The notes under the pieces are model-generated. The model worked only from the letters and a program-made list of their open reading frames with translations, had not been told where the DNA came from and did no database searches. From positions 1 to 45,220 of the forward strand of contig DAOTYR010000147.1 in assembly GCA_034434655.1 (NCBI GenBank): a stretch of DNA of 45,220 nucleotides, written 5' to 3'. The position numbers were made by a program, and so were the translations under genes. Shown piece by piece: positions 6,545 to 38,169 of the stretch. Source of the DNA: Chloroflexaceae bacterium. GTDB lineage: Bacteria; Chloroflexota; Chloroflexia; Chloroflexales; Chloroflexaceae. Positions within the stretch are counted from its first letter, which is position 1, and each line of letters starts with the position of its first letter.

Positions 6545-6783
6545 CGGCCGTCCATGCGGCCCGCGCCGCACACTGACGGGATGAACATACTTCCTGGGAG
6601 GGCTACGCCCACCCAAACCCTCCCACCGGGTGGGGGGATGGAGAAACCGGGTTTCCCCATCCCCCTGCGGGGTGCGGGCGTGGGGGAACCAGGTTCCCCC
6701 ATCCCCCTGCTCCAGGACTGCGCCCTCACCCGCCCGCGGGCGGGGGGATGGGGGAACCTGGTTCCCCCATGTTCACGTTAGGC
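6545..6783. repeat. Cluster of mosaic palindromic repeats
   Basis: Palindromes lie at 6638-6660 (atggagaaaccgggtttccccat), 6681-6701 (tgggggaaccaggttccccca) and 6748-6770 (atgggggaacctggttcccccat, perfect). The cluster also has the ccgtccatgcgg...gacgggatgaacatacttcctgggagggc module and a terminal gttcacgttag. Confidence 0.85.
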
Positions 6784-7154: not shown

Positions 7155-7288
7155 GCGGGGGGTTAAGGTGAGGATTGATTTCAGTAGCGCCGATTGGATT
7201 CAGTCGTGACAGATTAGACGCATAAGCGCGCCGACTTAAGGATGCGGTAACAGTTGTCTATTAAGATTTGTGTACAGTAGAGCCAGGC

Positions 7289-8251
7289 ATGCCAGATATC
7301 CGGTGGAAACGTATGGCACTGCTCAGTTCCAGCACAATCACCTTCAGCGGACACGAGACGTTTGTCCTGCGGAGTAACTGGCTCAAGAAAGCATACGACT
7401 TACTTCAGGACCAGCCCGACCTGTTTGCGCGCGAGGATTGCTTTGCGCGCCTCGGGGTGGGCAAAAATATGGCTCAGTCAATTCGCTTCTGGGGGCGTGT
7501 GTGCGGCGTATTCGAGCGGACTGAAGACAGCAAGGGTCATCGGGCAACCTGGCTTGGTCAGGCTCTCCTGGATGACCATAACGGTTGGGATCCGTTTCTT
7601 GTGACGCCAACCAGCCACTGGTTGCTGCATTGGCAGATCGTGAGACGACCAGAGGTAGCTTTTACCTGGTACTTTACCTTTAATTTGTTACGTCGTGGTG
7701 AATTTACCATCCCAAGCTTAGCTCAACAGATCCTCACGTTCGTTGCCCAGTATGGTGGCAAAGCGCCCTCGGATGCCACGCTCAGTCGCGATATTGACTG
7801 TATGCTGCGCTGCTACGTGCAACCTGATGCAATCCATCTCAAGACTGCGGTCGAAGATGCGCTCTATTGCCCTTTGCACACCACCGGTCTCATTCAGTCT
7901 CTGCCTAACCAGCAAGCCTATTATCTGGTCAGCGGCACTCATCCAAATCTCTCCGATCACCTGGTGGCGCTGGCGTCATTCCACCAGGCCCGAATGCTCA
8001 AGCGGAAGACCGTGTCATTCGCTGAACTTGCCTACGGAGAACGTTCACCAGGCCGGATCTTCCGGCTCGACGAAGACGCGCTGCTTGCGCGTCTGTTGCG
8101 GCTGGAGCAGGTGACAGCGGGCCGCGCAGTCTACAATGAAAGCGCCGGCATCCGCCAGATCGCCTGGCGTAACCTGGATGAGGAAGAGCACGAGGTTGAT
8201 CGCGCTCTTCTGAAGGCTGCTTTTAACCAGGAACACGCCTATGCCGAATAA
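7289..8251 (+). CDS. sspB: DUF4007-family protein (SspB-like)
   Basis: The N-terminal signature ITFSGHETFVLRSNWLKKAYDLL fits my recollection of DUF4007 proteins. It is the first gene of the operon and overlaps the next gene by 11 nt. The start is uncertain among TTG 7268, ATG 7289 and ATG 7313. Confidence 0.55.
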   Translation: MPDIRWKRMALLSSSTITFSGHETFVLRSNWLKKAYDLLQDQPDLFAREDCFARLGVGKNMAQSIRFWGRVCGVFERTEDSKGHRATWLGQALLDDHNGWDPFLVTPTSHWLLHWQIVRRPEVAFTWYFTFNLLRRGEFTIPSLAQQILTFVAQYGGKAPSDATLSRDIDCMLRCYVQPDAIHLKTAVEDALYCPLHTTGLIQSLPNQQAYYLVSGTHPNLSDHLVALASFHQARMLKRKTVSFAELAYGERSPGRIFRLDEDALLARLLRLEQVTAGRAVYNESAGIRQIAWRNLDEEEHEVDRALLKAAFNQEHAYAE

Positions 8252-11200
8252 CAGCGCCATCAGGGTAGCACCACGATTCACCCGGTCGGTGCATATTGGC
8301 CGCGATTTCCGCGATCTGCGCTTCCACCTCGACGGCTACCAGGTGACGCCGCTGGTGCGCCAGACTGCTGGACAGATTCTGTCCGGTCTGGCTGCCGACG
8401 CCACCGAACGCGCCTTTTCCGTGATCGGTCCCTTTGGTGCTGGCAAATCGGCGTTCGGGCTGTTCCTGGCCCATTTTCTGCAACGACGCCCGGCAGGGCG
8501 GCGCAAGTTGCTCACTTCGCTAGGCATAACGATCCCCGATGCACACTTACCCCTCGATGCGCCCACGCTCCTGGCGGTGCGCGTGCCAGGCAATCACGCT
8601 CCGCTGCGCCATGCGCTGCTGCAGGCGCTCAATGAGGTTCTGGACAGAGAAACGCGCCGGTCGGAGATTGCTGCCCTGTGTCAAACCCTTGAGCGCGCCA
8701 GGCACGACCCAAACCTCGATCCGGTACGCACGGCAGACTATGTAGCCGAGGCTGCGCGTCTACTCCGCGCCCAGGGTCGCTTCGATGGCCTGCTGGTGGT
8801 GATTGACGAACTTGGCCAGTTTCTTGATTATGCGGCCCGCCAGAATGAGGAACGCGATCTGTTCGTCTTGCAGAGCCTGGCTGAGACAGCAACACGTAGT
8901 GGCGATACCCCCGTGCTCGTAGTGACCATTCTGCACCAGGCATTCGAGCGCTATACCATCCACGCCGGGCCTACCCGGCGCGCTGAGTGGGCGAAAGTGC
9001 AGGGGCGCTTCAAAGACTTGCCGTTTCAGGAACCGGCGGCTCAGATAGTACGCATGGTCGCCTCCGCCCTCCGGCCGGTGGGGCGCGATCCATACAAGTG
9101 CGCGCGCGAGGAATGGACCACACAACTTGCCACTCTTTCCGAAGATCTTGGCCTGCGTCCGGTCGAGATCAGTTCAGCAGAATGGCGAAGCCTGCTAGCC
9201 GACACGTATCCGATTCATCCCACAGTGCTGGTCGCCCTGCCCTCGCTGTTCCGCCAGTTAGCTCAGAATGAGCGTTCACTCTTCGCCTTCCTCCATACTG
9301 ACGAGCCATGGGCGCTGCGCGATGTAACTGCTGATGCTGTGACTACTGACAGCCTGCCGATCTACCGGCTTACCCATCTTTATGCCTATGTTGAGGCTAA
9401 CCTTGGGCCATTTCTGTTCGGGAAGGCCCGCGGACAGCGCTGGGCTGAACTAGCCGAGGCACGCGTAGCTCTCGCCAACAGTGATCCGCTCCACCTCGAT
9501 ACACTGACCGTCGTAGGCGTTCTGGGCGCCATCGAACGCGCCTCGGGGCTACGCGCGAGTCAGGCGCATGTCGCCTTCGCGCTTGCTGATACACCTGACG
9601 ACCAGGCCGTCACTGATGCCTTGCGTGCACTGAGTGAACGGCGCATCATAGTGTACCGGCGCTATCGCGACAGCTATATCATCTGGGAAGGCAGCGATCT
9701 CGACCTGGAGACCCTGACCCAGGAAGCCCGACGGATGATTAGCGAACGGATGGATCTTACCGCCCTGTTGCAGCAGCATGCCGACACCACTCCACGCATC
9801 GCCCGGCGACATAGTTACCGTACCGGAGCCACGCGGGTATTCGCGGTGCGGTATGTGGAGGCTACACGCCTCAGCGTAGATCTGGCTGCCAGGGAAGGCT
9901 ACGATGGCGAACTCCTCCATGTCGTCCCGGCTGACGAAGAAGAACTGCGCGCAGCAGAGCATTGGGCACGCGACCCGGCGCGCGCCGAAGAACCATGGCG
10001 GATAACTGTCCTGCCACGGCACCTCCACGATCTGCGAGATCTGCTGCTTGAGGTCGCGGCGCTGCGCAACCTGCTCGATGAGCGCGCAGAACTCGAACAC
10101 GACCGGCCAGCGCGTCGCGAGGTGGCCGGACGACTGCTTGAAGCTCAGCAATTCCTCGCCGATACAATTATTGAGACCTATGGACGCGGGCGCTGGTTCT
10201 ATGCGGGTCAGCCCTACCACCCTCAGAGCGCCCGTCAGATTGACGATCTCCTTTCCAGGGCCGCGGATGCTACCTACCCTCACACTCCGCTGGTGTGGAA
10301 CGAGTTGATTGTTCGTCGCCAACTCACCTCAGCAGCGACCAAGGCGCGGCGCAACCTGGTTGAAGCGATGCTGAGCCGTGGCGCCGAGCCGCTCCTGGGA
10401 ATGACGGGCTACCCACCCGAACGGGCAATCTACGAGAGTGTTCTGCGTATGGGTGGATTACACCGCCGGGATGTGAATGGGACGTGGCGCATCGGCCCGC
10501 CGCCGCCGGAAGATCCGTTACGTCTGGGTCCGGTCTGGCAGGCGATGGAACGGCTTCTCGACACTGGGCGATCCGAACCTCACCCCATCGCGCACCTGTT
10601 TGCGCACATAGAAAGCCCGCCCTACGGCGTGAAAGCCGGATTGGCGCCGCTGCTCTTCGTGGCATTCTACGTAGCCCGTGCTGGCGAAATCAGCATTTAT
10701 GAACGTGGCACATATGTCCCGATGCCAGACATCGCAGTCTTCGAGCGGCTGATGACACGACCTGAACAGTTCAGCGTAAGCCTGTGCCGAGCCGAAGGGG
10801 CGCGCTGGCAGGTGTATGAACGACTCGCCCGCGCTCTAGCGCCCCAGGCTCTCACCCAGCCGTCACAGCCTGCCTTACTGGCCGTAACTCTGCCCCTGCT
10901 GCGCTTCATCAACCAACTGCCAGCGTACAGCAAGCAGACCAGACGCCTGAGCTTGCGGGCGCAGGCAGTTCGTCAGGCGCTCCGAGAAGCTCGCGCACCT
11001 GACGAACTGCTCTTCGAGCGATTACCAGGCGCATGTGACCTACCCTCGTTCCGCGCCGATGATGACGAAGGCACCCTATGGGTCGAACCTTTCGTCGCCG
11101 CCTTGCGTGAGGCCTTGCAAGAGTTACAAGGCGCCTACGCACGCTTGATTGAAACCGTTGCTACGCGCATTAGCGCAGCCTTCGGTTTACCATCAACCGG

Positions 11201-11678
11201 CGCGTCTGGCTACGAGGAACTGAAAAGGCGTTATGCGGCATTTGCCACCGCCGTAGCCGATCCGCAGATTCGCGCTATAGGCATGCGCCTGGAAACCGCC
11301 GATCCTGGAGATCAAGCCTGGATCGTGAGCCTAGCCACACTGGTGGCAAAACGTTCTCCAGAAACATGGAGCGATGCAGATCTCCCGGGGTTCGAGGCTG
11401 CCATAGCTGATCTGGGGCAACGCTTTCGGGCAGCCGAAGAACTGGCGCTCGTCACGCACACTGCCTCGCCTGACACACCGCTGGTGCGGGTCGGCTTAAG
11501 GAATGGACGCGGTGAAATCAGCCGGGTCGTGTATGCCGGTCTGACGGACCCGGCGGTGGAGCGCTTGCGGGCGGATCTCCGCGCATCCCTGGAGCGCCAT
11601 GCCGATCTCACAACTGATCAGCATGTTGCCGCTCTGACCGACCTGTTGCATGAAATCTTGACCGTCATGGAGAGCTAG
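8241..11678 (+). CDS. sspC: Large (1145-aa) P-loop NTPase (SspC-like)
   Basis: Walker A GPFGAGKS lies at 8427-8450. Walker B-like GLLVVIDELGQFLDY is followed by VLVVTILHQAF. Its position between the DUF4007 gene and the PAPS-reductase-like gene supports the call. Confidence 0.55.
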   Translation: MPNNSAIRVAPRFTRSVHIGRDFRDLRFHLDGYQVTPLVRQTAGQILSGLAADATERAFSVIGPFGAGKSAFGLFLAHFLQRRPAGRRKLLTSLGITIPDAHLPLDAPTLLAVRVPGNHAPLRHALLQALNEVLDRETRRSEIAALCQTLERARHDPNLDPVRTADYVAEAARLLRAQGRFDGLLVVIDELGQFLDYAARQNEERDLFVLQSLAETATRSGDTPVLVVTILHQAFERYTIHAGPTRRAEWAKVQGRFKDLPFQEPAAQIVRMVASALRPVGRDPYKCAREEWTTQLATLSEDLGLRPVEISSAEWRSLLADTYPIHPTVLVALPSLFRQLAQNERSLFAFLHTDEPWALRDVTADAVTTDSLPIYRLTHLYAYVEANLGPFLFGKARGQRWAELAEARVALANSDPLHLDTLTVVGVLGAIERASGLRASQAHVAFALADTPDDQAVTDALRALSERRIIVYRRYRDSYIIWEGSDLDLETLTQEARRMISERMDLTALLQQHADTTPRIARRHSYRTGATRVFAVRYVEATRLSVDLAAREGYDGELLHVVPADEEELRAAEHWARDPARAEEPWRITVLPRHLHDLRDLLLEVAALRNLLDERAELEHDRPARREVAGRLLEAQQFLADTIIETYGRGRWFYAGQPYHPQSARQIDDLLSRAADATYPHTPLVWNELIVRRQLTSAATKARRNLVEAMLSRGAEPLLGMTGYPPERAIYESVLRMGGLHRRDVNGTWRIGPPPPEDPLRLGPVWQAMERLLDTGRSEPHPIAHLFAHIESPPYGVKAGLAPLLFVAFYVARAGEISIYERGTYVPMPDIAVFERLMTRPEQFSVSLCRAEGARWQVYERLARALAPQALTQPSQPALLAVTLPLLRFINQLPAYSKQTRRLSLRAQAVRQALREARAPDELLFERLPGACDLPSFRADDDEGTLWVEPFVAALREALQELQGAYARLIETVATRISAAFGLPSTGASGYEELKRRYAAFATAVADPQIRAIGMRLETADPGDQAWIVSLATLVAKRSPETWSDADLPGFEAAIADLGQRFRAAEELALVTHTASPDTPLVRVGLRNGRGEISRVVYAGLTDPAVERLRADLRASLERHADLTTDQHVAALTDLLHEILTVMES

Positions 11679-11724
11679 CAAGCGCCGGGAGATTGCTGAA
11701 ACTCACAGATCGGTATAACGAACA

Positions 11725-12558
11725 ATGCAAAAGCACGATGCCATTACACGCGCCTGGGCTGAACGACCGGGGCGGCATATCGTAAATCTGAGCGGCGGCA
11801 AAGACAGCACTGCCCTGGCGATTTTTCTGCGCGACAAGATCCCCCCACTAGAGTACGTCTTTTGCGACACCCATAAAGAACTTCCGGAAACCTATGAGTA
11901 CCTGGAGCAGCTAGAAGCCTACCTGCAACGGCCGATTACCAGATTGAACGCGCAGCGCGGGTTCGACCACTGGCTAGAGATCTACGGAGGCGTGTTGCCA
12001 TCGGCGCAGGTGCGCTGGTGTACGCGCAAGCTGAAGATCGAGCCATTCGAAGCCTATGTCGGCGATGACACGGTCTGGAGCTACATCGGCATCCGCGCCG
12101 ACGAACAACGCAGCGGCTACATTTCAACCAAGCCGAATGTGCATCCGGTCTTTCCTTTTAAAGAGTGTGGCATGGCGCTAAGCGACATCGAGGGAATCCT
12201 GGCGGAGAGCGGATTGGGATTGCCGAGGTACTATGAATGGCGCCAGCGCAGTGGCTGCTATTTTTGCTTTTACCAACGTAGCGGGGAATGGATCGGACTT
12301 AAGGAGCGACATCCAGACTTATTTGAACAGGCGAAACAATACGAGAGCGAACGGGGAGGGGAACACTTTTACTGGCGCCAGCGCGAAAGCCTGGCCGAAT
12401 TGGAGCGGCCCGAGCGTATCGCCCAGATCAAGGCCGAACACCGGGCGCGCCTGGAACGCGAGCGCGCTCGACGGCCTGATCGTCCGTTGATAGAGGCGCT
12501 TGGTGCAGCCCTTGATGCCGAAGACGATGCGCAAGGATGTGATATTTGTCATTTGTAA
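11725..12558 (+). CDS. sspD: Phosphoadenosine-phosphosulfate-reductase-family PP-loop ATP pyrophosphatase (SspD/DndC-like)
   Basis: The PP-loop NLSGGKDSTAL has SGGKDS at 11791-11808. RWCTRKLKIEPF is present. Cysteine pairs CYFC (12256-12267) and CDIC (12538-12549) are present. Confidence 0.75.
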   Translation: MQKHDAITRAWAERPGRHIVNLSGGKDSTALAIFLRDKIPPLEYVFCDTHKELPETYEYLEQLEAYLQRPITRLNAQRGFDHWLEIYGGVLPSAQVRWCTRKLKIEPFEAYVGDDTVWSYIGIRADEQRSGYISTKPNVHPVFPFKECGMALSDIEGILAESGLGLPRYYEWRQRSGCYFCFYQRSGEWIGLKERHPDLFEQAKQYESERGGEHFYWRQRESLAELERPERIAQIKAEHRARLERERARRPDRPLIEALGAALDAEDDAQGCDICHL

Positions 12559-12573
12559 ACAGGCTCGACGCTT

Positions 12574-14361
12574 ATGTCAATTATCCGCAACCCCTTCGTC
12601 GACTACCTCAACAAGTACACTACTGCCTCACCAGACCACGAGGCCGCCTTTGACGAATTTGTCGCGCATACGCCGCCACCACCTGGCGGTCCATTGCGCT
12701 TTCAGACAAAGGTCGAGAAATTCCTCCGCATTCGCTTTGCCGAGTCCAGGCCACCTTCGATCATTCTTACCGGAAATGCCGGTGACGGCAAAACCTTTCT
12801 CTGTCGACAGATCATCCAAATATTTACCGCGAGGCATATTGATGACTGGGAAGAACTTGTCGAAAAACCACTTGAACGCCACGGAATTCGCCTGTATGTT
12901 ATCAAAGATCTCTCTGAGCTAAGTGAAGAGGAAGGCAGATCGGTACTCAACCGGCTAGAGCAAACCCTTAATTCGGAATCAAGTGATCGGTATCTGATTG
13001 CCGCTAATGAAGGACGCCTGCGAGATTTGCTGACTCGCGTCCAAACACCAAAACTTACCGAGTCAATCAAAACTCAACTTCAATATGGCATAGAATCAGG
13101 CTCCACGTCGCTGGTAGTAATCGACCTGACCAAAGTGACGACGTCGGCATTCGTCCCCGAGACATTACGCTGGATGACCAGCAATATTCACTGGCAAGTC
13201 TGTACCGATTGCCCCATTATTGAGAGGTGCCCGTTACACTACAATGTGCGTACTCTTCGCGATGAACGGGTTGTCAGACGGGTGCAGTTCCTCTATGATC
13301 TGCTAGAGCATCTTGACATCCACGTAACAGTGCGCGACATGCTGATTCACCTGGCATTTACACTGACCGGGAATCAGAGTTGTCCTGAATTGCAGCGACT
13401 CGACGCCGAAGATGCCGATCGTCATCATCTCGTGTATTACGAGAACATCTGGGGCGGATCTGAAAACAGTCCCTTTCGTCGCAAGGCAAGTGTCGTGCAA
13501 CATCTGGATCGGTTACAAATTGGGAAGCATTCCATCTTTGAGATCGATGACTTCATTATCAATGGAGGCGATCATCCTGATCAGACAATAGTTCATGCTC
13601 AACTCTTTACTCCAGCCGTCGATCTCGATTTCAAACGCTTTGAACAAGAACGTCGGGCATACATCGAAGGCGGCGCGGAAAAACAGACGGGTGAAGAAAC
13701 TCAGGCTTTTTTAGAGTGGTTGCCGCACTGTCGGCGCAAGTTATTTTTCGAGTCGCCCGATGAACAGCAGGCTAATGAATTAATCACTTTTCGCTACCTC
13801 AACACCTACCGGCAGTTGCTCACCAACAAGCACAAACCTACCGATAGTATACGCCATCGCCTGATACTAGGACTGAATCGCGCCTTTGCGCGGCTCTACC
13901 TTACTTTCGATGATATTCTCTACGTCACTAGTCAGTACCTGCACAGCGCTGAACAACCCCGGCCGTTGGTGCGACTAGAAATCCCTGCTAATGGGATCGG
14001 CCTTTCGATTGATGATCGCGAAGAACAAGCATTTGATCGGCGCTGGGCCGATCTCTATATACATTTTAGCCCACCGCCAGAATTGCACCTGCGTTGGACA
14101 AAAGACGCGCTGAAACCGCAGCGATGGCGTCTTAATCTACTGGTCTTTGAATATCTCTTGCGACTGGCTGACGGCGGGACATTCAACGTGCTCGCTGACG
14201 AGTGCGAACTAAGCATACGCAGCCTGAAAGATCGCTTACTCAGTGAATTCGCCCATGAAACGACAAACACGCGCATCAGATTCTTTGTTGCTGAGCAGCA
14301 ACAGTACGTTCTAAAGACCATCTATCTTGACGAGAAAGGGATTATCCGCGCAGGAGGTTAG
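12574..14361 (+). CDS. sspF: 595-aa P-loop protein (DptF/DndF/SspF-like restriction component)
   Basis: Walker A GNAGDGKT lies at 12772-12795. LYVIKDLSELS is Walker-B-like. Size and position match the first gene of F-G-H trios. The start is 15 nt after the sspD-like stop. Confidence 0.5.
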   Translation: MSIIRNPFVDYLNKYTTASPDHEAAFDEFVAHTPPPPGGPLRFQTKVEKFLRIRFAESRPPSIILTGNAGDGKTFLCRQIIQIFTARHIDDWEELVEKPLERHGIRLYVIKDLSELSEEEGRSVLNRLEQTLNSESSDRYLIAANEGRLRDLLTRVQTPKLTESIKTQLQYGIESGSTSLVVIDLTKVTTSAFVPETLRWMTSNIHWQVCTDCPIIERCPLHYNVRTLRDERVVRRVQFLYDLLEHLDIHVTVRDMLIHLAFTLTGNQSCPELQRLDAEDADRHHLVYYENIWGGSENSPFRRKASVVQHLDRLQIGKHSIFEIDDFIINGGDHPDQTIVHAQLFTPAVDLDFKRFEQERRAYIEGGAEKQTGEETQAFLEWLPHCRRKLFFESPDEQQANELITFRYLNTYRQLLTNKHKPTDSIRHRLILGLNRAFARLYLTFDDILYVTSQYLHSAEQPRPLVRLEIPANGIGLSIDDREEQAFDRRWADLYIHFSPPPELHLRWTKDALKPQRWRLNLLVFEYLLRLADGGTFNVLADECELSIRSLKDRLLSEFAHETTNTRIRFFVAEQQQYVLKTIYLDEKGIIRAGG

Positions 14362-14366
14362 CAAAG

Positions 14367-16010
14367 ATGACCTCACACTACGGCAACTACGATCACACCA
14401 AGTCCCCCCTTGCCACATACATCTGGGGTCATCGTCTACGCACCGGACAGCACTGGATCGAATACATGGTTGAGTTTTTGAGTGTGATATCAGGGTTTGA
14501 CTACCAGCTTGGTCAAGGCCTTAAGGGTCACCCCAACGTTAAGGTGGAGTACCGTCTTCCCAAACGACTAGGCCTACGGCGCTTCATTTTCTACGATCAG
14601 CGCGAAAAGAATCGTAACCCCTACGATGACCATGCCGTTCAAGAACTCCACAAGAGGCTCAGTTCACGCGTCTGTGGAATAGACAGTCACTCTGACCAGA
14701 TCGCGATCGATCAGGTACGCTCGCTCCTGCGCTCTTTCTCGGTAGTCGAAGGCAATCGCTCATGGTATGCCAAAACTCTTTTTCCTGTACATGAAGAGTT
14801 TCTACTCTGGGAAGGACAGCGTAGCCGTTCAGCGAAACTCACCACGCCGCTTCTGACACCTGACCTTGATTTAAATGAACTGGACCCGGACAACCTGGAT
14901 CGCGGAATGGAGTTCACCACACGCAACTTCTTTGCGCGCGGCGGGGAGATCTACTACCTGATCCTCTCAGCCGGCACTGAGAAGCAGCCGGACTATCGCA
15001 TGTTCATTGGCAAACGACTACGGGAGTTGCTGACTGAGCACAATCGAATTCTTGGCCAGATTGCCAGTACCATTGATACGACCTGGCAACCACGCGACAA
15101 TGGTCATACGAATTCCGCTTTTATCACTGGCTCACTCGGCTGGATACCACAACGGGATTGCGCACTCTACCAGCAGGTTGCTGAGGACCTGGTAACATTC
15201 CTCCAGAATAATTTGGATTCGCTTGAGTGCCTCGAACTACTGGCCCATCTGATCGGATTTCATATCATTTGTTACATATATCACCACGCCAATCCACATA
15301 TTGATCGTCCAGCACTGATCGTTGACCTGCTAGGCGCGCATGACGGCGGCGTATTACGCAATCAATCAGCGGCTTCACTCCGTGAACAGGAAGATCGGCA
15401 ACTTCGTAGAGCGAAGGACTTCGTTACAGAGCGGGTTCGGGAATGGGCAACTGATCAATTAGAAGGACCAATCTTGCTGGACCACCTTGAGCAGGAAACT
15501 AAGAACTATTTTCAATTGGGCCAGACCAGGGCGAAAGCAGAATACAACAAGACCCTCAAAGAACTCGGCCAATCCTATCAGATAGAGAGGGATCGCGAGC
15601 GCCTGCTCAAAGCATATAGCGAAGGTTTGTTCAAGGCCCTGGAGGGCGAGCTACGCAAAAATTTCCTTGGAATCCATCGCAAAATCGGACAAGCGATCGG
15701 CTTGATCGCGCCTATCAAAGGCCCAAAACCTCGCTTTGTGCTTGGCGACACTCTGTTAAAAACCCTGGTAATGGCGAACCTCAAACCCGATGACACTTTA
15801 CCATTCGGTGAGTTTTTGGAACGGCTCTATGCGCGTTATGGAATCATCATTGGTCCTGGCGAAAGCCGCACTGCACAGGTAATGGAGCGTTTGCGGATCA
15901 ATGAAGAATATTTCTCTCGTAACCGCGATGCACTCCGCGAACGTATGCGTCGCGCGGGCCTGCTAATCGAGTACTCCGACACAACGGCAATCGTCCGACG
16001 AGTTCAATGA
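14367..16010 (+). CDS. sspG: 547-aa protein with no recognisable motif (DptG/DndG/SspG-like by position and size)
   Basis: The ORF starts 5 nt after the previous stop, and a GGAGG lies in the end of the upstream gene. It overlaps the next gene by 4 nt (ATGA). The assignment is by synteny only. Confidence 0.4.
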   Translation: MTSHYGNYDHTKSPLATYIWGHRLRTGQHWIEYMVEFLSVISGFDYQLGQGLKGHPNVKVEYRLPKRLGLRRFIFYDQREKNRNPYDDHAVQELHKRLSSRVCGIDSHSDQIAIDQVRSLLRSFSVVEGNRSWYAKTLFPVHEEFLLWEGQRSRSAKLTTPLLTPDLDLNELDPDNLDRGMEFTTRNFFARGGEIYYLILSAGTEKQPDYRMFIGKRLRELLTEHNRILGQIASTIDTTWQPRDNGHTNSAFITGSLGWIPQRDCALYQQVAEDLVTFLQNNLDSLECLELLAHLIGFHIICYIYHHANPHIDRPALIVDLLGAHDGGVLRNQSAASLREQEDRQLRRAKDFVTERVREWATDQLEGPILLDHLEQETKNYFQLGQTRAKAEYNKTLKELGQSYQIERDRERLLKAYSEGLFKALEGELRKNFLGIHRKIGQAIGLIAPIKGPKPRFVLGDTLLKTLVMANLKPDDTLPFGEFLERLYARYGIIIGPGESRTAQVMERLRINEEYFSRNRDALRERMRRAGLLIEYSDTTAIVRRVQ

Positions 16011-19000
16011 AGGAGTTTTGTAGGATGCGCAGTGATCAGATTATTGCCGATGCGCTCAAACGCTACCTTGAGGCTTGTCTGCGCGAGAATCAAGCGTCAC
16101 GAGCGTTTTTTCGGCTTTCCGGATTTGATCAACCCATCTACAAAGCCTTGCTGGATAATCTGGCCCGTCTGAATTGGCGCCTTGGCGATATGCAGCTCGA
16201 AGTGCGCAGTATTGCATCCATTTCCAGTCATGATGAACGGGTCATGGAGCGGCATCGATCCGCGACGTGGTATCGCAACCATCTTAAAGCCGGCTATGCT
16301 CTGGTGCTAATTCAGAATCGCCGATCTACAGATGCTCAGAGTCTCAAAGATTTGTACTCCGTGACTGAAGGCTCACTCACAAATGATGGTCTGGCACATT
16401 TGATTGCAGCAACATGTGTGAACTATCAATTGAAACCTGAAGATCGCAAACAACTCGAAACATTCATACGTCGGTTTGGGAAAAAACTCTTCAAACCACA
16501 ACTTCGCGACCTGACAGAGTTTCTCTATCATGTTGACAAGAGGCTTGCGGAGCAACCAACAGCCATAATGCCTGACGCCATTGCTCGCGCTTTGCCATAC
16601 CTGGGATTATTTCAGTGTCTGGATTTTGCACCACACCTCAACACCCTTCAGGGTGACCGAATGCTGCGGCAGTTGCACAACGCCGCACGAATCGGTAGCG
16701 AGGTATTTGATGAGAATAAACAGGAGACATATCTAAAACGGCTGGAAACGGCGCCACTTGAGGATGACAGTGCGCTGAATGGTTATAGTGCCGAGGAGAA
16801 ACGTGTTTTGCTCCAACAGTTTATTGAAGGCCAGTTCCGGAATGACCGAACAAACACGCTTCGTGTCCTCCAGATCGACTGGCGCGAGGTTCAACACATT
16901 ATTACGACAAAGACTCGCAGTTCGCAGGCACAGAAGTTCAAGGAAATTGCTGACGAGATCGAAGAAGCGTTTCCTCAAGACACGATATCTGACCGTAATC
17001 TGATTGAGTTGCTTACCTCTCTGCGTAATGAGCGTGAACCAGAGGCAGATCTAGTCGATCAAGTCGTCGAACAGATTGGCGATAGTCTGAGTAAGCAATT
17101 GCGCGGCAAACTGCGTCGTCTGGTGAAGACTCGCACGCGCAAACACAGCGATTTCCTGGTTGGCCTGACAGCACTGGCCATTGAATTGTTGCATCCTCGC
17201 CAGGATGAATTGCAACCAGGAACACGTATGCGGATTGAACTGGATGAACAGACGTTTGAAGATCAAGCAATTAAAATTTTTCATACTTTATTCGGTGGAA
17301 TTGAGAAGATATTTTCAGATATTGAATGGGATCTGAACTCCGTTTCAGAAATTCTATCAGGGTATGAAACTCGTGAAACCGGGGAAGATCATGAAAAAGA
17401 AGGCCAGAGTGAAGTACGATTTCGGGTAGGAATCCTGGATGCCGATGGCCAAGAACTTGCCAGAGCCGACCTGATCTGGCAGTACCGTTCTGACAGCCCG
17501 GCTACAGCAACCTACCGAATGCTCGAAGCTGAACGACAAACGCTGAAACATCTCAACAATAAGCGCCTCCGCATTCCGATCTTTAAACGCTGCCCACACA
17601 GCGAAGATATCAGTAATCTGGATCTCCATCGTCCGTTGAAATCGTTCGGAAACTGGTCCGATCAGCCAGAGGATCTACGAACGTTGCTGTCAGCTATGCC
17701 ATTGCAACGACTCAGACCGCAAGCGCCGAAGGCTCTCTTTGAGGCGCTAGATGGACTGGAAGAGGCCTGGGGACAGTTCGTGCAGACAGCGACAGATCAG
17801 GGGCTCATAGCCGCAGACATCAGTTCCTTGCTCGAAGCCTATGCCAATCTTCTTCACGCGGCCATTAGTCACTTGCAAACCGGTCAGGAAGTCTCTTTCG
17901 GGCTTCGGGTATTGGTTCAGGCGTGGATGATCGGTGCCAGCGGATTTGAGGATTGGGCGATCATCCCTCTTCTACATCCGCTCAAACTGCTCTGGTGGCG
18001 CGAACGTGCTCGTCATTTCGCCGGTATTGTGCGACAGTTACTGACTCCAGCGCAGTCCGTTACCATCGTGGATGAACCAAGACTACAGCGCGAACTAGCC
18101 ATAACCTATGGATCTAGCCAGTTTCCACCTATTCTGGCCCTTCCGCCGAAGGAAGGAGCCCCTGTCGAGTGGTTTGTTCCTATCGAGGAAGTTGAAGGGT
18201 ATGAACTCTTCTTCCCCGCTCACAAACTCAATGCGTCTTTTGGGTCGTCTACGGCCAACCTTTTTGCCGATGAAACAGAAATCGCCACTCGACGCGCCGT
18301 TGAAGGTATTGCGGGTGTTATTCAGGACTATGTCGAAACCTATCCCTTTGTTCGTGATGGATTGGAACTAGTGCTACTCGAATGCCGGAATAGCATTTTT
18401 CCTGAACTTCTGATTGAACAAATAACAAAATCCGACACTGCAGAATCCATACGCACTTCACTACTGGTACATACGTCTGATCGCGGGGCACCGATCTTTC
18501 AGCGGCTTAGTGAGTGGGCAGCGAATCACCATGATAGCGCTGATCATCTATCCGGGGATTACTTCCCATCAATTAGTCTCAACGTGCAGCAGGGTCCGTT
18601 CGAGGAACTGCTACGCAAGAGCACAAACAAAGATCTAGTCATTCTGGCTGATGTCCTGGCCCAACGAGGGCAACGCATCATTCCCGAATTGTCTCAGTCT
18701 GAACCGAATGATATTCCGCTTGAAGGGTTCCTGCCCATTTACCGTGCGCAGCAGGAACCGTTCGAGCGCGGCGAACTCTATCGACGCCTGCGACTTACCC
18801 AGACTGATCAACCAGCACTAGTACGACACTTCCTACTCGCACAGTATGCAGCATTTCAGAAGCGCGGAGTTGATCCGCGAGCAACGGTAAATTTCTATCG
18901 TGAGACGAGCCTGGACGATTGGAAAAACGATCTCAAGAAACTTCATCACCATTTCAACTGGGTTATTTGCTACGATCCTGCAATTGACCGTTTCCTGTTG

Positions 19001-21115
19001 CAAGCGACGTTACCAGACACAGTACAGGTTATCCGCTATTCACTGGGGCTCGGCGAGAAACGTCAGCATAATCTTACCGTTTCTTCGTCACATAAACCAC
19101 AGATTATCGTACAGCGACGATTAGCTTCACGCCTGAAACAGATGCTTCCCGCTGCTGATCGCATATTGCTTGACCAGATTGCCGGCCAGTTGATCGAACA
19201 GGCCAAGCAGATCTCGGGAGATATTGTGCTACGCGCGGCGGGACCAGGCGCGTTCCTCAACGAAATGATCGGCATTGTCGCGGCAAAGTTTGAAACTGAA
19301 CGCCGGCTCGAAACACGTTATCCCAACGCTCTTAGAACCTGGATCCTACTTGACGACTTTGAACACTGGTTTCACGGTAAATTCCCCGACCTGCTATGCG
19401 TGGTCATTGATCGAAGCATGAATAACGCTCTTAAATTACATTTAGAGATCGTTGAAGCTAAGTGCGTGAGTCAGCATGCCTTCAATACTGAAACCGTTGA
19501 TGCCGAAGAACAGGCCCGTCGCGGCGCCGGTCGGTTGGTGGCAGCTTTTGCGCCCGGCGCACATCACCTTGATGCCACCTTTTGGTACGATCAGTTGTAC
19601 CGAGCCATCGCCGGAAACCTCGTTGTGGAATACGAACAGCAATCCTTGTGGGAGCTTTTTCGCGAACGCTTTCAAAACGGCGATTTTGAACGGACGATCA
19701 GCGCGCATGCCTGGACGTTCTGCTATGATGGGCAGGCGGGTATTGAGAAAGGTCCAGAGGAGACACAGACGAGTCGGCCTGTGCCTGATGCGCCCGGTGT
19801 GCCTTTATACACACATCGGTATGGACGCAAAGAGTTGTGCCAGATCCTGCGTGAACTCGTTGAGCATTCGGAAGGCCTTACGCCAACAAATGCCTGGATG
19901 CCCGCACAGGATATCGTCGAAGTCACAACTGTTCAGTCAACCACAACGGATGCCATCGCTTCCCCTGTCACCCTTGGACCCGTATCGTCAGATCTCTCAA
20001 CTGATGAACAAAACTGGTTAGATCTTATGGCTCGCAATCTCGAGAAGGCTTTACGCCACCGGGGGGTGCGCGTGCTGCGCATTAATCCAACTGATGCCGA
20101 TGTGGGGCCAAGCATTGTGCGTTTCAAGGTCCGACTTGGTCACGATGAGACTCTCCGAAAAGTTCAAAGCGTAGCCACGGATCTGGCACGGGATCTTGCG
20201 CTTGAAAAAACGCCGCTGATAGCTAATGTACCTGGCACGCAATTTGTTGGGATTGATTTGCCACGTCCACAACCAACGATCGTCGCTCTGGAACCACTGT
20301 TGGAGCAATTACCTTTACCAGCACCGGCTGAATTACCGATCATAGTTGGAATCACGCCTGATGGAACCGTGGTGAAAGATGATCTTTCTGAATTTCCTCA
20401 CTTGCTGGTTGCTGGAGTTACGAATTCTGGCAAATCTGTGTTTTTACGGAATCTGCTTCTCTGTCTCATAAAGCGATATGCTCCGAAACATCTTGAACTC
20501 CTGATCATCGATCCAAAACACACCGATTTTACTTTCTTCAACCAACTGCCGTATCTGCGTGGGGGCAAGGTGATAGTAGACCCAGGTGAGGCCAGAGAGG
20601 CGCTGCTGGAATTAGCGCGAAGTGAGATGAGACGTCGTCAACGTATCATGAGTGGACGAAGTCTAAAGGTCAAGCAGTTTAATCTTGACTATCCTGACGA
20701 AGCTCTGCCGCCAATTGTAGCCATGATTGACGAATACCATATGTTGATCAGCCAGATGGATCGAAAGGAACGAGAAACATTTGAGCAAGATCTTTATATC
20801 CTGGCGGCCGCTGCTCGTTCAGTGGGTATTCATCTAGTAGTTGCCACTCAGCGTCCGGGCGCTGACGTGATCACTCCAAATCTTAGAGCTAATCTAGGCG
20901 CTCAGATTGCATTCCGCGTCTCAACAGGCACCAATTCTCGAGTGGTTATTGACGAGAGCGGCGCTGAACATCTCATTGGTCGTGGCGATATGCTTTTTCG
21001 TCAGGCTTCCGGAGAAGTGATCCGTCTGCAAGCACCGTTTATGTCAGAAAAGGAACTGCTCGATTATCTTAAATCACTAATGCCAAAGCATCACAGAGAT
21101 GCCGCAAACTCGTGA
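16007..21115 (+). CDS. sspH: 1702-aa giant protein with a C-terminal FtsK/SpoIIIE-type ATPase motor (DptH/DndH/SspH-like)
   Basis: Walker A GVTNSGKS lies at 20414-20437 and Walker B MIDEYH has its DE at 20729-20734. HLVVATQRPGADVITPNLRANLGAQIAFRV and GRGDMLF are present. An alternative start is the ATG at 16025, which has AAGGAG 9 nt upstream. Confidence 0.6.
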   Translation: MKEFCRMRSDQIIADALKRYLEACLRENQASRAFFRLSGFDQPIYKALLDNLARLNWRLGDMQLEVRSIASISSHDERVMERHRSATWYRNHLKAGYALVLIQNRRSTDAQSLKDLYSVTEGSLTNDGLAHLIAATCVNYQLKPEDRKQLETFIRRFGKKLFKPQLRDLTEFLYHVDKRLAEQPTAIMPDAIARALPYLGLFQCLDFAPHLNTLQGDRMLRQLHNAARIGSEVFDENKQETYLKRLETAPLEDDSALNGYSAEEKRVLLQQFIEGQFRNDRTNTLRVLQIDWREVQHIITTKTRSSQAQKFKEIADEIEEAFPQDTISDRNLIELLTSLRNEREPEADLVDQVVEQIGDSLSKQLRGKLRRLVKTRTRKHSDFLVGLTALAIELLHPRQDELQPGTRMRIELDEQTFEDQAIKIFHTLFGGIEKIFSDIEWDLNSVSEILSGYETRETGEDHEKEGQSEVRFRVGILDADGQELARADLIWQYRSDSPATATYRMLEAERQTLKHLNNKRLRIPIFKRCPHSEDISNLDLHRPLKSFGNWSDQPEDLRTLLSAMPLQRLRPQAPKALFEALDGLEEAWGQFVQTATDQGLIAADISSLLEAYANLLHAAISHLQTGQEVSFGLRVLVQAWMIGASGFEDWAIIPLLHPLKLLWWRERARHFAGIVRQLLTPAQSVTIVDEPRLQRELAITYGSSQFPPILALPPKEGAPVEWFVPIEEVEGYELFFPAHKLNASFGSSTANLFADETEIATRRAVEGIAGVIQDYVETYPFVRDGLELVLLECRNSIFPELLIEQITKSDTAESIRTSLLVHTSDRGAPIFQRLSEWAANHHDSADHLSGDYFPSISLNVQQGPFEELLRKSTNKDLVILADVLAQRGQRIIPELSQSEPNDIPLEGFLPIYRAQQEPFERGELYRRLRLTQTDQPALVRHFLLAQYAAFQKRGVDPRATVNFYRETSLDDWKNDLKKLHHHFNWVICYDPAIDRFLLQATLPDTVQVIRYSLGLGEKRQHNLTVSSSHKPQIIVQRRLASRLKQMLPAADRILLDQIAGQLIEQAKQISGDIVLRAAGPGAFLNEMIGIVAAKFETERRLETRYPNALRTWILLDDFEHWFHGKFPDLLCVVIDRSMNNALKLHLEIVEAKCVSQHAFNTETVDAEEQARRGAGRLVAAFAPGAHHLDATFWYDQLYRAIAGNLVVEYEQQSLWELFRERFQNGDFERTISAHAWTFCYDGQAGIEKGPEETQTSRPVPDAPGVPLYTHRYGRKELCQILRELVEHSEGLTPTNAWMPAQDIVEVTTVQSTTTDAIASPVTLGPVSSDLSTDEQNWLDLMARNLEKALRHRGVRVLRINPTDADVGPSIVRFKVRLGHDETLRKVQSVATDLARDLALEKTPLIANVPGTQFVGIDLPRPQPTIVALEPLLEQLPLPAPAELPIIVGITPDGTVVKDDLSEFPHLLVAGVTNSGKSVFLRNLLLCLIKRYAPKHLELLIIDPKHTDFTFFNQLPYLRGGKVIVDPGEAREALLELARSEMRRRQRIMSGRSLKVKQFNLDYPDEALPPIVAMIDEYHMLISQMDRKERETFEQDLYILAAAARSVGIHLVVATQRPGADVITPNLRANLGAQIAFRVSTGTNSRVVIDESGAEHLIGRGDMLFRQASGEVIRLQAPFMSEKELLDYLKSLMPKHHRDAANS

Positions 21116-21146
21116 GCGCTAGATCGCTTCCCATCGCATTGAGCGG

Positions 21147-21179
21147 CAGTCTACAATCCACAATCTAAAATGGTATAAG
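21147..21179 (+). promoter_or_regulatory. Heptad-phased AATCNNN motif ending in TGGTATAAG, copy A
   Basis: The sequence is cagtctac aatccac aatctaa aatggta taag. It shares its architecture with 41498-41539 and 41789-41823. TGgTATAAG resembles an extended -10. Confidence 0.4.
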
Positions 21180-21212
21180 ATAGATTAATTACATCTACAC
21201 TGTAATCAGGTT

Positions 21213-21309
21213 TTTCCCGTCCCCCCGTCATTCCAACCGGCGGGGTGTGGTTGTTTTCCCTCGTGGGAATGGCATGCTCATGTTTCCCCGTCCCCCCGTC
21301 ACTCCAACC
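21213..21309. repeat. Direct duplication of the 3' end of the cdd-like gene
   Basis: tttcccgtccccccgtcattccaacc (21213-21238) matches tttccccgtccccccgtcactccaacc (21283-21309). The second copy contains the real stop codon at 21299-21301. Confidence 0.8.
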
Positions 21310-21679
21310 CAAACGCATCGGGCAGGAGATCGGCGATGGGCACGGGGCGGTCAGGGTCGGCTGCGCTGAGGATCAGCAGGGTGGGGGCGAACTCGATGAG
21401 GGCCTGCAGGCAGTCGCCGCAGGGGTAGGGCATGTCGGCGCCCGCGCCGGCGACGGCCAGCGCCGTGAAGCGGCGCGCGCCCGCGGCGCAGGCGCAGACC
21501 AGCGCCGCCTTGGCCGCGCAGACGCTGGAGGCGTAGTTGGCGATCTCCAGGTTGCCCGCGGCGAAGATCCGCCCGTCCTCGGCCAGCAGGGCCGCGCCGC
21601 CCCGCCGCCCGGTGCGCGGCGCATGGGCCAGCGCCGTCGCCTGGCGCGCCGCGTCGAGCAGAGTCGCCAGGTCCATCAT
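21299..21679 (-). CDS. Cytidine/deoxycytidylate-deaminase-fold protein lacking the catalytic Glu
   Basis: The sequence GGAALLAEDGRIFAAGNLEIANYASSVCAAKAAL...PYPCGDCLQALIEF keeps the zinc-ligand Cys residues (C...PCGDC). CAE is replaced by CAA. The gene has a 4-nt ATGA overlap with the upstream kinase gene. Confidence 0.7.
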   Translation of the reverse strand: MMDLATLLDAARQATALAHAPRTGRRGGAALLAEDGRIFAAGNLEIANYASSVCAAKAALVCACAAGARRFTALAVAGAGADMPYPCGDCLQALIEFAPTLLILSAADPDRPVPIADLLPDAFGLE

Positions 21680-22233: not shown

Positions 22234-22239
22234 TGTTAT

Positions 22240-22536
22240 AGTTCCTCTGCTGTGACAGGAGTTACACGGTCGCCTTCCGGCAGGGAGAGGTGGAGGGCCT
22301 GCGGCCCACCTCCAGCCCGCGGTTGCCCGCCCGCGGGGGGTGGGCCGGGGGGCTTTAGCCCGGCTGCCTGGCCGCCGCGGGCGGGAAAGGGGGCATGCGG
22401 GGAGGCGATGCCTCCCCGCGCCCCTCCACTACGTGAGTCCTGTAATGTGAACAGCGGCTCCTGGAGCAGGGGGTGGGGAAACCGGGTTTCCCCATCCCCC
22501 CGCCCGCGGGAAGGCCTGGCTCTCCAGCAGGGGTAT
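22240..22536. repeat. Mosaic GC-rich repeats
   Basis: A hairpin gcggggaggc-gat-gcctccccgc lies at 22397-22419. Palindromes lie at 22474-22494 and 22537-22555. Confidence 0.75.
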
Positions 22537-23135
22537 GGGGAAACCGGGTTTCCCCACGCCCCTGCCCACGGGAGGGTCAATGACACCGCCCCCTCCCTCA
22601 CGCTCCTCGCCGGGGGAGGGAACCGGGCGCCTCCCCCCCGGCGGGGGGAGGCCGGGAGGGGGGCCACCCGGTTGCCCCCCTTCCCCGCGGGAAGATTCGG
22701 GAGAGCACCGGCTTCTCGCAGGGGGCATAGGGCAACCCGGTTAGACCATCCCCCTGCCCGCGGGAGGGTCAATGACACCGCCCCCTCCCTCACGCTCCTC
22801 GCTGGGGGAGGGAACCGGGTGCCTCCCCCCAGCGGGGGGAGGCCGGGAGGGGGCAACCCGGTTGCCCCCCTTCCCCGCGGGAAGATTTGGGAGAGCACCG
22901 CCTTCTCGCAGGGGGCATAGGGCAACCCGGTTACACCATCCCCCTGCCCGCGGGAGGGTCAATGACACCGTCCCTTCCTCACGCTCCCCGCCGGGGGAGG
23001 GAACCGGGCGCCTCCCCCCAGCGGGGGGAGGCCGGGAGGGGGGCCACCCGGTTGTCCCCTTCCCCGCGGGAAGATCTGGGAGGGCACGGCCCTCACGCAG
23101 GGAGATGGAGCCACCCGCTTGCCCCACGCCCTCGC
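22537..23135. repeat. Three tandem copies of a ~190-bp composite repeat
   Basis: The anchor ggagggtcaatgacaccg recurs at 22571, 22763 and 22953, giving periods of 192 and 190 nt. The units are near-identical by eye. Each carries the gggaaccgggcgcctcccccc.gcggggggaggc and ggggcaacccggttgcccc hairpins. Confidence 0.85.
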
Positions 23136-23196
23136 CGCTGGCTATGCTGACGGTAGAGTACCACAAGTCGCGCAGCATACTGGCAACCCCTGCCTC

Positions 23197-23312
23197 ATGG
23201 TCTTTGAATAACTAATCCGGTATAGCCCGCGCAGGCGGGCTTCCCCTTGCCTAGCCGAGGGCTTTAGCCCGACGGCTAGCGCGGGATAGCGGATTAATTT
23301 CTCAAAGAGCAT
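23197..23312 (-). mobile_element. 116-nt MITE-like element, copy 1 (reverse orientation relative to copy 2)
   Basis: The termini are atggtctttgaataa...tttctcaaagagcat. The internal sequence ctagccgagggctttagcccgacggctag and gcccgcgcaggcgggc is the reverse complement of copy 2. Confidence 0.75.
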
Positions 23313-23811
23313 AAGGCGCGTCTTCGGCCCAGAGGAACACGATGCGCTCGCCGCCGACGATGGCCAGGCCATTGTCGAGCGGGGCCGCGCTGATGGAGCG
23401 CCAGCCGAGCACCTCCCGCCCGTTGACGTCGTAGAGGGCGAAGTCGCCGCTGATGGCCCCGTTGGTGAAATAGCGGGCGTCGCCTGGCACGAGATCGAGC
23501 ACGCGCCGGGCAAGCTCCTGGGCGCGCGCCGGGGGCGCGACCTGCGCGGGGTAGGCCAGTTCGCCGCCGATCAGATGGGTTAGGAGCTTGACCGCAATGC
23601 GGCGAGGCAATTCGACCCAGTGTTCGCCGAGGCCCTGATAGCCCAGTTCCGCGGCCAGCGCGTCGCAGGCGGCGAAGGGTTGGGCCGGCGCGGCGGCCAG
23701 ACGGCGCGCGGCAAACGTCAGCGGGTAACTCGATGCGCGGGCGCGGTCGAGGTCGCGGGCGAGGGCCGCGATAGCAGGGTCGGGGTCGGATAGGAGCAGG
23801 GGAGAAGCCAT
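23302..23811 (-). CDS. Hypothetical protein (169 aa)
   Basis: The ORF is the only long one here that is not built from repeat DNA. No motif is recognised and no clear RBS is present. The last codons and the stop lie inside MITE copy 1. Confidence 0.45.
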   Translation of the reverse strand: MASPLLLSDPDPAIAALARDLDRARASSYPLTFAARRLAAAPAQPFAACDALAAELGYQGLGEHWVELPRRIAVKLLTHLIGGELAYPAQVAPPARAQELARRVLDLVPGDARYFTNGAISGDFALYDVNGREVLGWRSISAAPLDNGLAIVGGERIVFLWAEDAPYAL

Positions 23812-23897
23812 AAGGCATGGTTCAGATCGGAGCGTCGCGGCCCGGCGGGCGCGTCTGTCGGTGACGGCGCGCCCCCCCGGCCAGACGACGGCGCGGG

Positions 23898-24377
23898 TCA
23901 GACCGTCAGGCCCAGCGCCGAGGCCAGGTCGGCCAGGGCCTGGCGTTCGATGTCGCTGACCGCTGTGCCGCCGAAGCCCAGAAAGCCGCCTTCCTTGCCA
24001 GCCTCGGCGGCCCTCCGGGCCGTGTCGTAGAGGAACTGCTTGAAGGCCTGGCCCTCCTCCGGCGAGCGCCCCTCGACCAGGGCCACTGCCTGGTTGAGCG
24101 TATTCATCGCGAAGGTTCTGGCCTCTTCCTTGCTGGAGAACTTCGGCAAATCGGGCTTGATATTGCGCGCCTGCAGATCAGCGGCCAGATCCTTGACAAT
24201 CTGGAGCGAGGCCGCGTCTCTGGCGCCTTCGATGATGCCGCTGACAGCGGCGAACATCTCTTTCATCAGTCCGATGGGGCCGCCTGGATCGGCCATCGAG
24301 ATGTACATCGCGGTAACGACCGGCGCGAGGCCGATGGTCTGCCATTCTTCCGGTGTGAAATCCGTCCTGGAGGCCAC
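23898..24377 (-). CDS. Hypothetical protein (159 aa)
   Basis: The sequence reads (V)ASRTDFTPEEWQTIGLAPVVTAMYISMADPGG... The start is a GTG at 24375-24377, with AGGA 7 nt upstream. The family is not recognised. Confidence 0.5.
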   Translation of the reverse strand: MASRTDFTPEEWQTIGLAPVVTAMYISMADPGGPIGLMKEMFAAVSGIIEGARDAASLQIVKDLAADLQARNIKPDLPKFSSKEEARTFAMNTLNQAVALVEGRSPEEGQAFKQFLYDTARRAAEAGKEGGFLGFGGTAVSDIERQALADLASALGLTV

Positions 24378-24435
24378 AGATCATCCTTTCTACGCAAGAC
24401 ATCGTTGCGCTGGCGCCTGTTCGCATCTCAGGTCG

Positions 24436-24645: not shown

Positions 24646-24707
24646 ACAGGTCCATTATGCCATAAGCAGGGCGCGCGCGGGGGAGGTGAAATAACAGGTA
24701 GCCACAG

Positions 24708-29295: not shown

Positions 29296-29541
29296 GATCC
29301 TACGCTGGAGCATTCGCGCCGTCAAGGGGCAGGCGCCGGCCCGCTGGCCCTGCCCCCTGTGACCGCAAGGGGATTTTAGTCGTCAAGGTTTTACTGAGAA
29401 CCCTGCATAGCTATCAATTTTCAGTAAGATATGCTAGGATAGATGCCATCTTATCAGGCAGGGGTGGGGGGAAACCGGGTTTCCCCACACCCCTGCGGTC
29501 GCCTCGCTTCACTGATCCTTCACCAGCGCTAGGAGTCAACA

Positions 29542-38126: not shown

Positions 38127-38169
38127 GCCATGGGTTCAGTAGAGCTATGCGCTATGCTCCCGTCGCGTG

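Follow-up and report, generated by a model that had tools for sequence, protein, structure and literature searches.

A probable SspBCD-SspFGH phosphorothioate-based defence system on a recently acquired 14.1-kb genomic island of a Chloroflexaceae bacterium

The DNA analysed here, referred to below as the window, is a 45,220-bp stretch from a Chloroflexaceae bacterium (GenBank assembly GCA_034434655.1) and is the complete contig DAOTYR010000147.1. It carries six consecutive genes whose products belong to the protein families SspB, SspC, SspD, SspF, SspG and SspH, and we consider it very probable that they form a complete SspBCD-SspFGH phosphorothioate-based, restriction-modification-like defence system located on a recently acquired island of 14.1 kb. 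The genes are as follows.

7289-8251, + strand: operon gene 1, sspB, 320 aa, DUF4007 protein
8241-11678, + strand: operon gene 2, sspC, 1145 aa, large P-loop ATPase related to BrxC/PglY
11725-12558, + strand: operon gene 3, sspD, 277 aa, PP-loop ATP pyrophosphatase of the PAPS-reductase superfamily
12574-14361, + strand: operon gene 4, sspF, 595 aa, P-loop NTPase of the restriction module
14367-16010, + strand: operon gene 5, sspG, 547 aa, mainly helical protein of DndG-like fold, putative subunit for DNA binding or discrimination
16007-21115, + strand: operon gene 6, sspH, 1702 aa, giant multidomain putative effector

A preliminary description of the locus had reported six tightly packed co-directional open reading frames (ORFs), and these were re-derived at the same coordinates, all on the + strand. 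Its gaps of 46, 15 and 5 nt and overlaps of 11 and 4 nt were reproduced exactly (spacings of -11, +46, +15, +5 and -4 nt between successive ORFs from sspB to sspH), and all nine motifs that it quoted were located in the proteins it had named. The restriction genes sspFGH adjoin sspBCD, the gap between sspD and sspF being 15 nt. All six ORFs are intact and keep every invariant residue of their families. Two gene starts allow alternatives: sspB could begin at a TTG at 7268, seven codons upstream, where public calls on identical contigs take the ATG at 7289 (320 aa), and some gene calls begin sspH six codons downstream, giving 1696 rather than 1702 aa. Promoter and terminator scans stayed at chance level, with 7 promoters found against 9.1 expected and 13 terminators against 12.9 expected.

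The lower GC content claimed for the operon is real when judged by third codon positions against flanking genes: this value (GC3), which is 0.83-0.86 in the flanking genes, falls to 0.62-0.64 for sspBCD and to 0.48-0.55 for sspFGH. For total GC, the flanks stand at 0.68-0.70, sspBCD at about 0.60 and sspFGH at about 0.50. We considered the step between the two halves of the operon as a sign that the modules had separate origins and rejected it, because sspBCD exceeds sspFGH in GC by 4-10 points in 14 of 15 related loci, independent of host GC. The step is thus a trait of the operon family and not evidence of separate origins here.

Profile searches against Pfam, NCBIfam and PADLOC mapped genes 1-6 one-to-one to SspB, SspC, SspD, SspF, SspG and SspH. 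PADLOC E values ranged from 1e-47 to 0, and Pfam matches were obtained to DUF4007, PAPS_reduct, FtsK_alpha and FtsK_SpoIIIE, which upholds the sspBCD-sspFGH-like identity first proposed from the sequence letters. The preliminary description had also placed genes 4-6 in a joint DndFGH/DptFGH and SspFGH restriction architecture; only the SspFGH half of that assignment was recovered by profile, since no DptF/G/H or DndF/G/H model in PADLOC or NCBIfam was matched at E <= 0.01.

In the modification module, SspB matches the PADLOC SspB model at 5e-84 and Pfam DUF4007 at 2.3e-73, and in a PDB sequence search it aligns at 2e-39 with 6JUF and 6LB9, both of them solved structures of SspB; the motif FSGHETFVLRSNWLKKAY lies at its residue 19. 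SspC matches its PADLOC model over the full length (residues 10-1067, E=0, 1124 bits) and carries Walker A GPFGAGKS at residue 63 and Walker B VVIDELG at 186; one PADLOC BrxC model also matches it at 576 bits. For SspD, the PADLOC SspD match (2e-114) is accompanied by Pfam PAPS_reduct (2.5e-11) and by weak cross-matches to DndC models (about 1e-5) and BrxP (1.5e-10). Its PP-loop SGGKDS begins at residue 23, and five of the six loop residues (S23, G24, G25, D27 and S28) are invariant in 19 homologues, as are five cysteines, C99, C178xxC181 and C272xxC275. In the published system SspD is the ATP pyrophosphatase and SspB the nickase (PMC8092258), SspB being the DNA-binding and nicking subunit of the modification module.

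SspF matches the PADLOC SspF model over its full length (3e-235), with Walker A GNAGDGKT at residue 67. Conservation was read at the 90% level, as one badly extracted sequence (locus L023) consists entirely of gaps in the alignment; GNAGDGKT, KDLSE, AANEGRLR and C210xxC213x5C219 are conserved in at least 90% of the 22 aligned sequences. The AANEGRLR motif places an Asn at the Walker-B-like position, and both this Asn and the CxxCx5C cysteine cluster resemble published DndF.

SspG, encoded between sspF and sspH, matches the PADLOC SspG model at 1.3e-47 over residues 18-544. The preliminary description could name no motif or function for this protein, and PDB sequence searches with SspF and SspG indeed gave no matches, but a partial assignment can now be made from a structural model. 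The AlphaFold2 model of SspG, built with 27 homologues, has a predicted local distance difference test score (pLDDT) of 81 and a predicted template modelling score (pTM) of 0.86. When the model was compared with the PDB by Foldseek, the sole standout was DndG, 7EXX (probability 1.00, E 2.5e-3, template modelling (TM) scores 0.35/0.42), with a runner-up about 100 times weaker. Structure prediction and Foldseek, proposed earlier for genes 5 and 6, pointed to DndG for SspG, and for SspH the top matches were class-I methyltransferase and Rossmann folds at E of about 1e-2.

SspH matches the PADLOC SspH model at E=0 (1248 bits), and three regions of this protein could be distinguished.

18344-19096, + strand: SspH residues ~780-1030, Rossmann / class-I methyltransferase-like fold (Foldseek and model)
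19244-19816, + strand: SspH residues ~1080-1270, candidate PD-(D/E)xK restriction-endonuclease domain (motif and topology)
19997-21058, + strand: SspH residues 1331-1684, FtsK-alpha plus FtsK/SpoIIIE motor with no gamma domain (Pfam and PDB)

In the motor region, Pfam FtsK_alpha (1.3e-10) and FtsK_SpoIIIE (3.6e-29) fall within residues 1331-1618, residues 1324-1684 match FtsK in PDB entry 2IUU at 9e-48, and the motor motifs GVTNSGKS, MIDEYH, VATQRPG and GRGDMLF stand at 1470, 1573, 1612 and 1658. About 20 residues remain after the motor, and the gamma domain is absent. Upstream of it, an AlphaFold2 model of residues 131-1330 (pLDDT 82, pTM 0.73) shows the first ~470 residues of SspH as mainly helical, with scattered strands from about residue 375. 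At the top of the Foldseek results for the model stood methyltransferase folds, among them TrmK, MidA and GRAS (E about 1e-2, probability up to 1.00). Foldseek supplied no query coordinates, and the boundaries of the methyltransferase-like region were taken from the alternation of strands and helices in the model. Neither a GxGxG nor a [DNS]PP[YFW] motif was found within residues ~780-1030, so this module looks inactive and is apparently without catalytic function.

Residues ~1080-1270 form a candidate PD-(D/E)xK nuclease domain. E1086, P1127-D1128, E1150-x-K1152 and Q1169 are invariant in 25 homologues, and the model shows the PD-(D/E)xK topology, with the D before one beta-strand, the ExK within the following strand and helices flanking both. 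Some 1400 residues of the giant had been considered unassignable from sequence; with model, Foldseek and conservation combined, part of them can now be read as an apparently inactive methyltransferase-like fold and a PD-(D/E)xK signature. The D...E-x-K arrangement is kept in an Agrobacterium SspH (see below) and in distant relatives with TraG-type motors. In three such relatives (P0204, P0206 and P0207), the N-terminal region of SspH and D...ExK are combined with a TraG/VirD4-type ATPase (PF10412, PF12846) that replaces FtsK, which is consistent with the published idea of a repeated capture of HerA/FtsK-class motors.

These features raise the alternative that genes 4-6 belong to the Dnd family, as a restriction module of DptFGH/DndFGH type that has been combined with modification genes of another kind. 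The layout is alike, each set consisting of a P-loop protein, a protein of intermediate size and a giant of some 1700 aa, and the sizes correspond; the SspG model matches DndG; and SspF shares the Asn at the Walker-B-like position and the Cys cluster. DndH has been described as a target recognition domain, an inactive methyltransferase, a restriction endonuclease and a HerA/FtsK motor, with FtsK-alpha in one clade, by Rakesh, Aravind and Krishnan 2024 (PMC10853773), and the order in SspH of apparently inactive methyltransferase-like fold, candidate endonuclease and motor with FtsK-alpha resembles this description. DndH is also reported to carry an inactive SNF2-like domain and two beta-sandwiches, and the comparison with SspH covers the order of methyltransferase, endonuclease and motor. 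In the same paper DndG is a triple winged helix-turn-helix protein related to SspB, and SspF, SspG and SspH are nowhere named. Against Dnd membership stands the profile evidence given above, with SspF/G/H models matching at up to E=0 and their Dnd counterparts unmatched, and the restriction genes are partnered here by sspBCD and not by dndBCDE: dndB, dndD and dndE are absent, and DndC models reach only about 1e-5 on SspD. We regard Dnd membership as very unlikely. We take the likeness as a sign of distant homology between the two families, and it suggests that SspFGH is a distant structural relative of DndFGH, for which the founding paper of 2021 reported no sequence homology (PMC8092258).

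The six genes of the SspBCD-SspFGH system lie on an inserted island, whose limits were obtained from empty-site contigs.

7158-21277, no strand: genomic island, an insertion of about 14.1 kb that contains all of the ssp system (blastn of empty-site contigs)
21192-21309, no strand: right junction repeat, an imperfect copy (21192-21238) of native sequence 3' of cdd, recurring at 21281-21309

In two contigs of the same metagenome series (L008 and L011), the SCO4226-like gene and cdd are immediate neighbours, and the site is empty. In blastn comparisons their homology to the window stops at 7157 on the left and resumes at 21278 on the right, and the island is therefore delimited by the junctions 7157/7158 and 21277/21278. 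The horizontal acquisition that the preliminary description had proposed is thereby demonstrated directly. An occupied contig (L006) and the empty L008 come from one sample, ERZ27247240. Upstream the island is preceded by topA, a DUF123 gene, purD, purN and the SCO4226-like gene, and it is followed by cdd, a small kinase gene, then transketolase and larC; these flanks consist of housekeeping genes, and island GC is 0.50-0.60 against 0.68-0.70 in them. Named members of the 90%-identity PurN cluster indicate that the uncultured host is of Chloroflexaceae or Oscillochloridaceae type. At the right junction, the repeat is 27 nt long and 93% identical, and the copy includes the last codons of cdd. 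A tRNA search of the contig found none, so there is no tRNA attachment site; an integrase gene was found nowhere in the contig, and neither a transposase nor another recombinase gene in or beside the island. The host has palindromes resembling repetitive extragenic palindromic (REP) elements: a perfect one, GGGGAAACCGGGTTTCCCC, and variants of it were located at 25 positions across the window, often in clusters (for example 6640-6768, 22475-22555, 29089-29486, 35722-35911 and 43485-43711), with none inside the island. The chance of this is about 9e-5 under uniform placement, although these elements are intergenic and the island is poor in intergenic space.

Relatives of the system are concentrated in the same phylum, nearly all named SspG and SspH homologues being from Chloroflexota. 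A scan of species-representative genomes with a single SspH query found nothing, and a scan with an SspG alignment returned 34 loci. When the six proteins were mapped, about 14 complete related loci showed the co-directional order B-C-D-F-G-H, including those of Oscillochloris trichoides DG6, Ca. O. fontis, Chloroflexus islandicus and Herpetosiphon llansteffanensis. An adjacent cysteine desulfurase gene was clear in one locus only (L045), with a weak, partial match in another (L039).

One relative (L014, CALAMI010000034.1) occupies the same chromosomal site as the island. It is filed as a 'Candidatus Binatia' metagenome-assembled genome but is probably mis-binned, since its purD, purN and cdd flanks are 91-93% identical in DNA to those of the window, a Chloroflexaceae-type contig. 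Its ssp genes are only about 75% identical in DNA to those of the window. Synonymous divergence (dS) between the two is 0.16-0.51 for purD, purN, the SCO4226-like gene and cdd, values possibly lowered by the strong codon bias of high-GC flank genes, as against 0.98-1.53 for the six ssp genes, and the two alleles are therefore much older than the split of their hosts. This fits independent acquisition, or replacement through recombination in the flanks. The ratio of nonsynonymous to synonymous divergence (dN/dS) is 0.07-0.13 for all six genes, which places them under purifying selection. The purN / SCO4226-like / cdd site thus exists in at least three states, namely empty (L008 and L011), with the ssp allele of the window and with the allele of about 75% identity. 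A further contig, L010, has a fourth arrangement with different genes after purN.

The selection data also bear on whether the island might be a decaying or domesticated remnant in which the BCD genes are an orphan epigenetic system and FGH is inactive. A 2021 survey found 84% of sspBCD loci to be without a restriction partner (PMC8092258), and the gene for a sulfur donor is absent from the contig, both of which would suit such a remnant. However, the six ORFs are intact with all invariant family residues kept, dN/dS against the diverged allele is 0.10-0.13 for sspF, sspG and sspH, and many contigs from a single ENA metagenome assembly series encode identical proteins, so that we give this explanation very little credence. 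A BREX-type-4-like or MADS-like system sharing only parts with Ssp has next to no plausibility: the BrxC match of SspC, the BrxP match of SspD, the PADLOC mad8 match of the SspH motor (9e-23) and the NCBIfam MAD7 match of the SspG C-terminus (1.3e-7, 31 bits against a cut-off of 410 bits) all fall well short, in score or in coverage, of the Ssp matches to the respective proteins, and neither the six island proteins nor the scanned flanking ORFs showed a PglZ, BrxL or methyltransferase domain. A literature search for links between MADS and FtsK found nothing relevant.

The SspBCD-SspFGH system as found here can be compared with two named loci. SspABCD-SspFGH was defined in Vibrio anguillarum FF-93 by Wang et al. 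2021 in mBio, where sspBCD together with iscS write 5'-CpsCA-3', the adjacent sspF, sspG and sspH are each essential for defence, and SspFGH damages DNA lacking the phosphorothioate mark and is toxic without sspBCD (PMC8092258). The same six families are present in the window, sspBCD again adjoins sspFGH, SspF has a Walker A motif, SspH ends in an FtsK-like domain, and sspA is missing from the cluster, with an IscS-type enzyme presumably acting in trans. This likeness is one of gene set and published description. The loci differ in that the genes here form one tight co-directional six-gene unit, while the paper treats sspFGH as an operon of its own. The survey in that paper covered 2,678 sspBCD loci, of which 196, chiefly from Rhizobiales, Pseudomonas, Escherichia and Burkholderia, adjoined sspFGH (PMC8092258); Chloroflexaceae-type hosts are not named among these main carriers. 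The second locus, an uncharacterised sspABCD-sspFGH on Agrobacterium tumefaciens plasmid pAtCFBP7129b (NZ_CP039925.1), has homologues of all six proteins, with identities of 39% for SspB, 26% for SspC, 46% for SspD, 25% for SspF, 39% for SspG (C-terminus) and 26% for SspH. It differs in having an adjacent sspA cysteine desulfurase gene, convergent modules and an extra gene after sspH. A third arrangement, SspABCD-SspE, shares the SspBCD modification module, but SspE (DUF262 plus HNH) is activated by phosphorothioate where SspFGH attacks DNA without it (PMC8092258); SspE was found neither within the island nor elsewhere in the window among the ORFs scanned.

We infer the chemistry, the modification motif, the cutting subunit and the way in which the sulfur mark blocks attack partly from homology with the published systems and partly from the domains described above. 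By homology, a cysteine desulfurase from elsewhere in the genome would supply sulfur; SspD, SspC and SspB would then place single-strand phosphorothioate marks on host DNA, possibly at the published motif 5'-CpsCA-3'; and SspF, SspG and SspH would jointly attack unmarked DNA. On our own reading of the domains, SspF may be a nucleotide-binding regulator, SspG and the apparently inactive methyltransferase-like module of SspH may read the DNA and its modification state, and SspH would be the effector, with an FtsK-type motor that translocates on DNA and a PD-(D/E)xK domain that nicks or cuts it. The mark would probably stall the SspH motor, by comparison with DndFGH, for which the published mechanism is translocation-coupled nicking with an ATPase repressed by phosphorothioate. 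A literature search on the mechanism of SspG and SspH after 2021 found nothing relevant.

Several points count against this interpretation and should be set beside it. Among the scanned ORFs of the 45-kb contig no cysteine desulfurase was found, and we therefore assume a sulfur donor acting in trans; SspA may be encoded elsewhere or replaced by IscS (PMC8092258). The nuclease region of SspH found no support in Pfam (E <= 10 on four SspH segments) or in a PDB profile search with the nuclease-region alignment, which makes the domain a call from motif plus topology. The TM-scores of the SspG-DndG match are modest. Finally, identity to the sole proteobacterial sspABCD-sspFGH locus compared, that of the uncharacterised Agrobacterium plasmid, is as low as 25-46%, and the modification motif could therefore differ.

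The last point leads to a more ambitious proposal, in which the sspA-less six-gene clade of Chloroflexota would be a distinct Ssp subtype, with a motif other than 5'-CCA-3', a restriction arm that is a cryptic complex of Dnd type and 'HerA/FtsK capture' origin with the SspH PD-(D/E)xK domain as its nuclease, and a purN/cdd hotspot at which whole ssp alleles are swapped. A different motif is conceivable, given that the identity of SspB and SspC to their counterparts on the Agrobacterium plasmid is as low as 26-39%. Taken as a whole, we put this proposal forward as speculative and rather doubtful.

Other features of the window lie outside the island. A co-directional cluster at 36066-40668 is unrelated to the ssp system; it encodes a protein in which a Ser/Thr protein kinase is joined to a PQQ-like beta-propeller, together with a PP2C phosphatase and a protein with a VWA domain. 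The intergenic region 3' of the small kinase gene that follows cdd contains, at 22530-23102, three GC-rich units of 190 nt in tandem that match at 91%. It is followed by two elements of about 116 nt resembling miniature inverted-repeat transposable elements (MITEs), at 23197-23312 and 24490-24605, in opposite orientation and with terminal inverted repeats ATGGTCTTTGA...; the pair encloses two small ORFs on the - strand (23294-23818 and 23898-24377) with no Pfam match. Two borderline matches to Rfam CRISPR-DR28 were rejected as CRISPR, as they lie inside the MITE-like elements and form no repeat array. The region 3' of the small kinase gene differs between strains: in contig L003, positions 18257-21644 compared with 22236-24700 of the window, the repeat-rich segment is replaced by pgk, a nucleotidyltransferase / HepT-like toxin-antitoxin pair, DUF488 and a NERD-domain gene.

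Little in this locus is new in kind, since the same gene set was published in 2021 (PMC8092258), and standard defence-system finders would call it SspBCD-SspFGH. What the analysis adds is that the system is common and conserved as a single operon in Chloroflexota, a phylum not highlighted by the original survey. The island is also a clean natural case of gain and loss of the system and of turnover between its alleles, the empty site and two ssp alleles being recorded at one chromosomal position, and empty and occupied forms in the same sample. The conserved residues D1128, E1150 and K1152 of SspH support a testable proposal for the subunit that would cut DNA, and the models suggest a fold-level link between SspFGH and DndFGH despite the lack of sequence homology reported in the founding paper.

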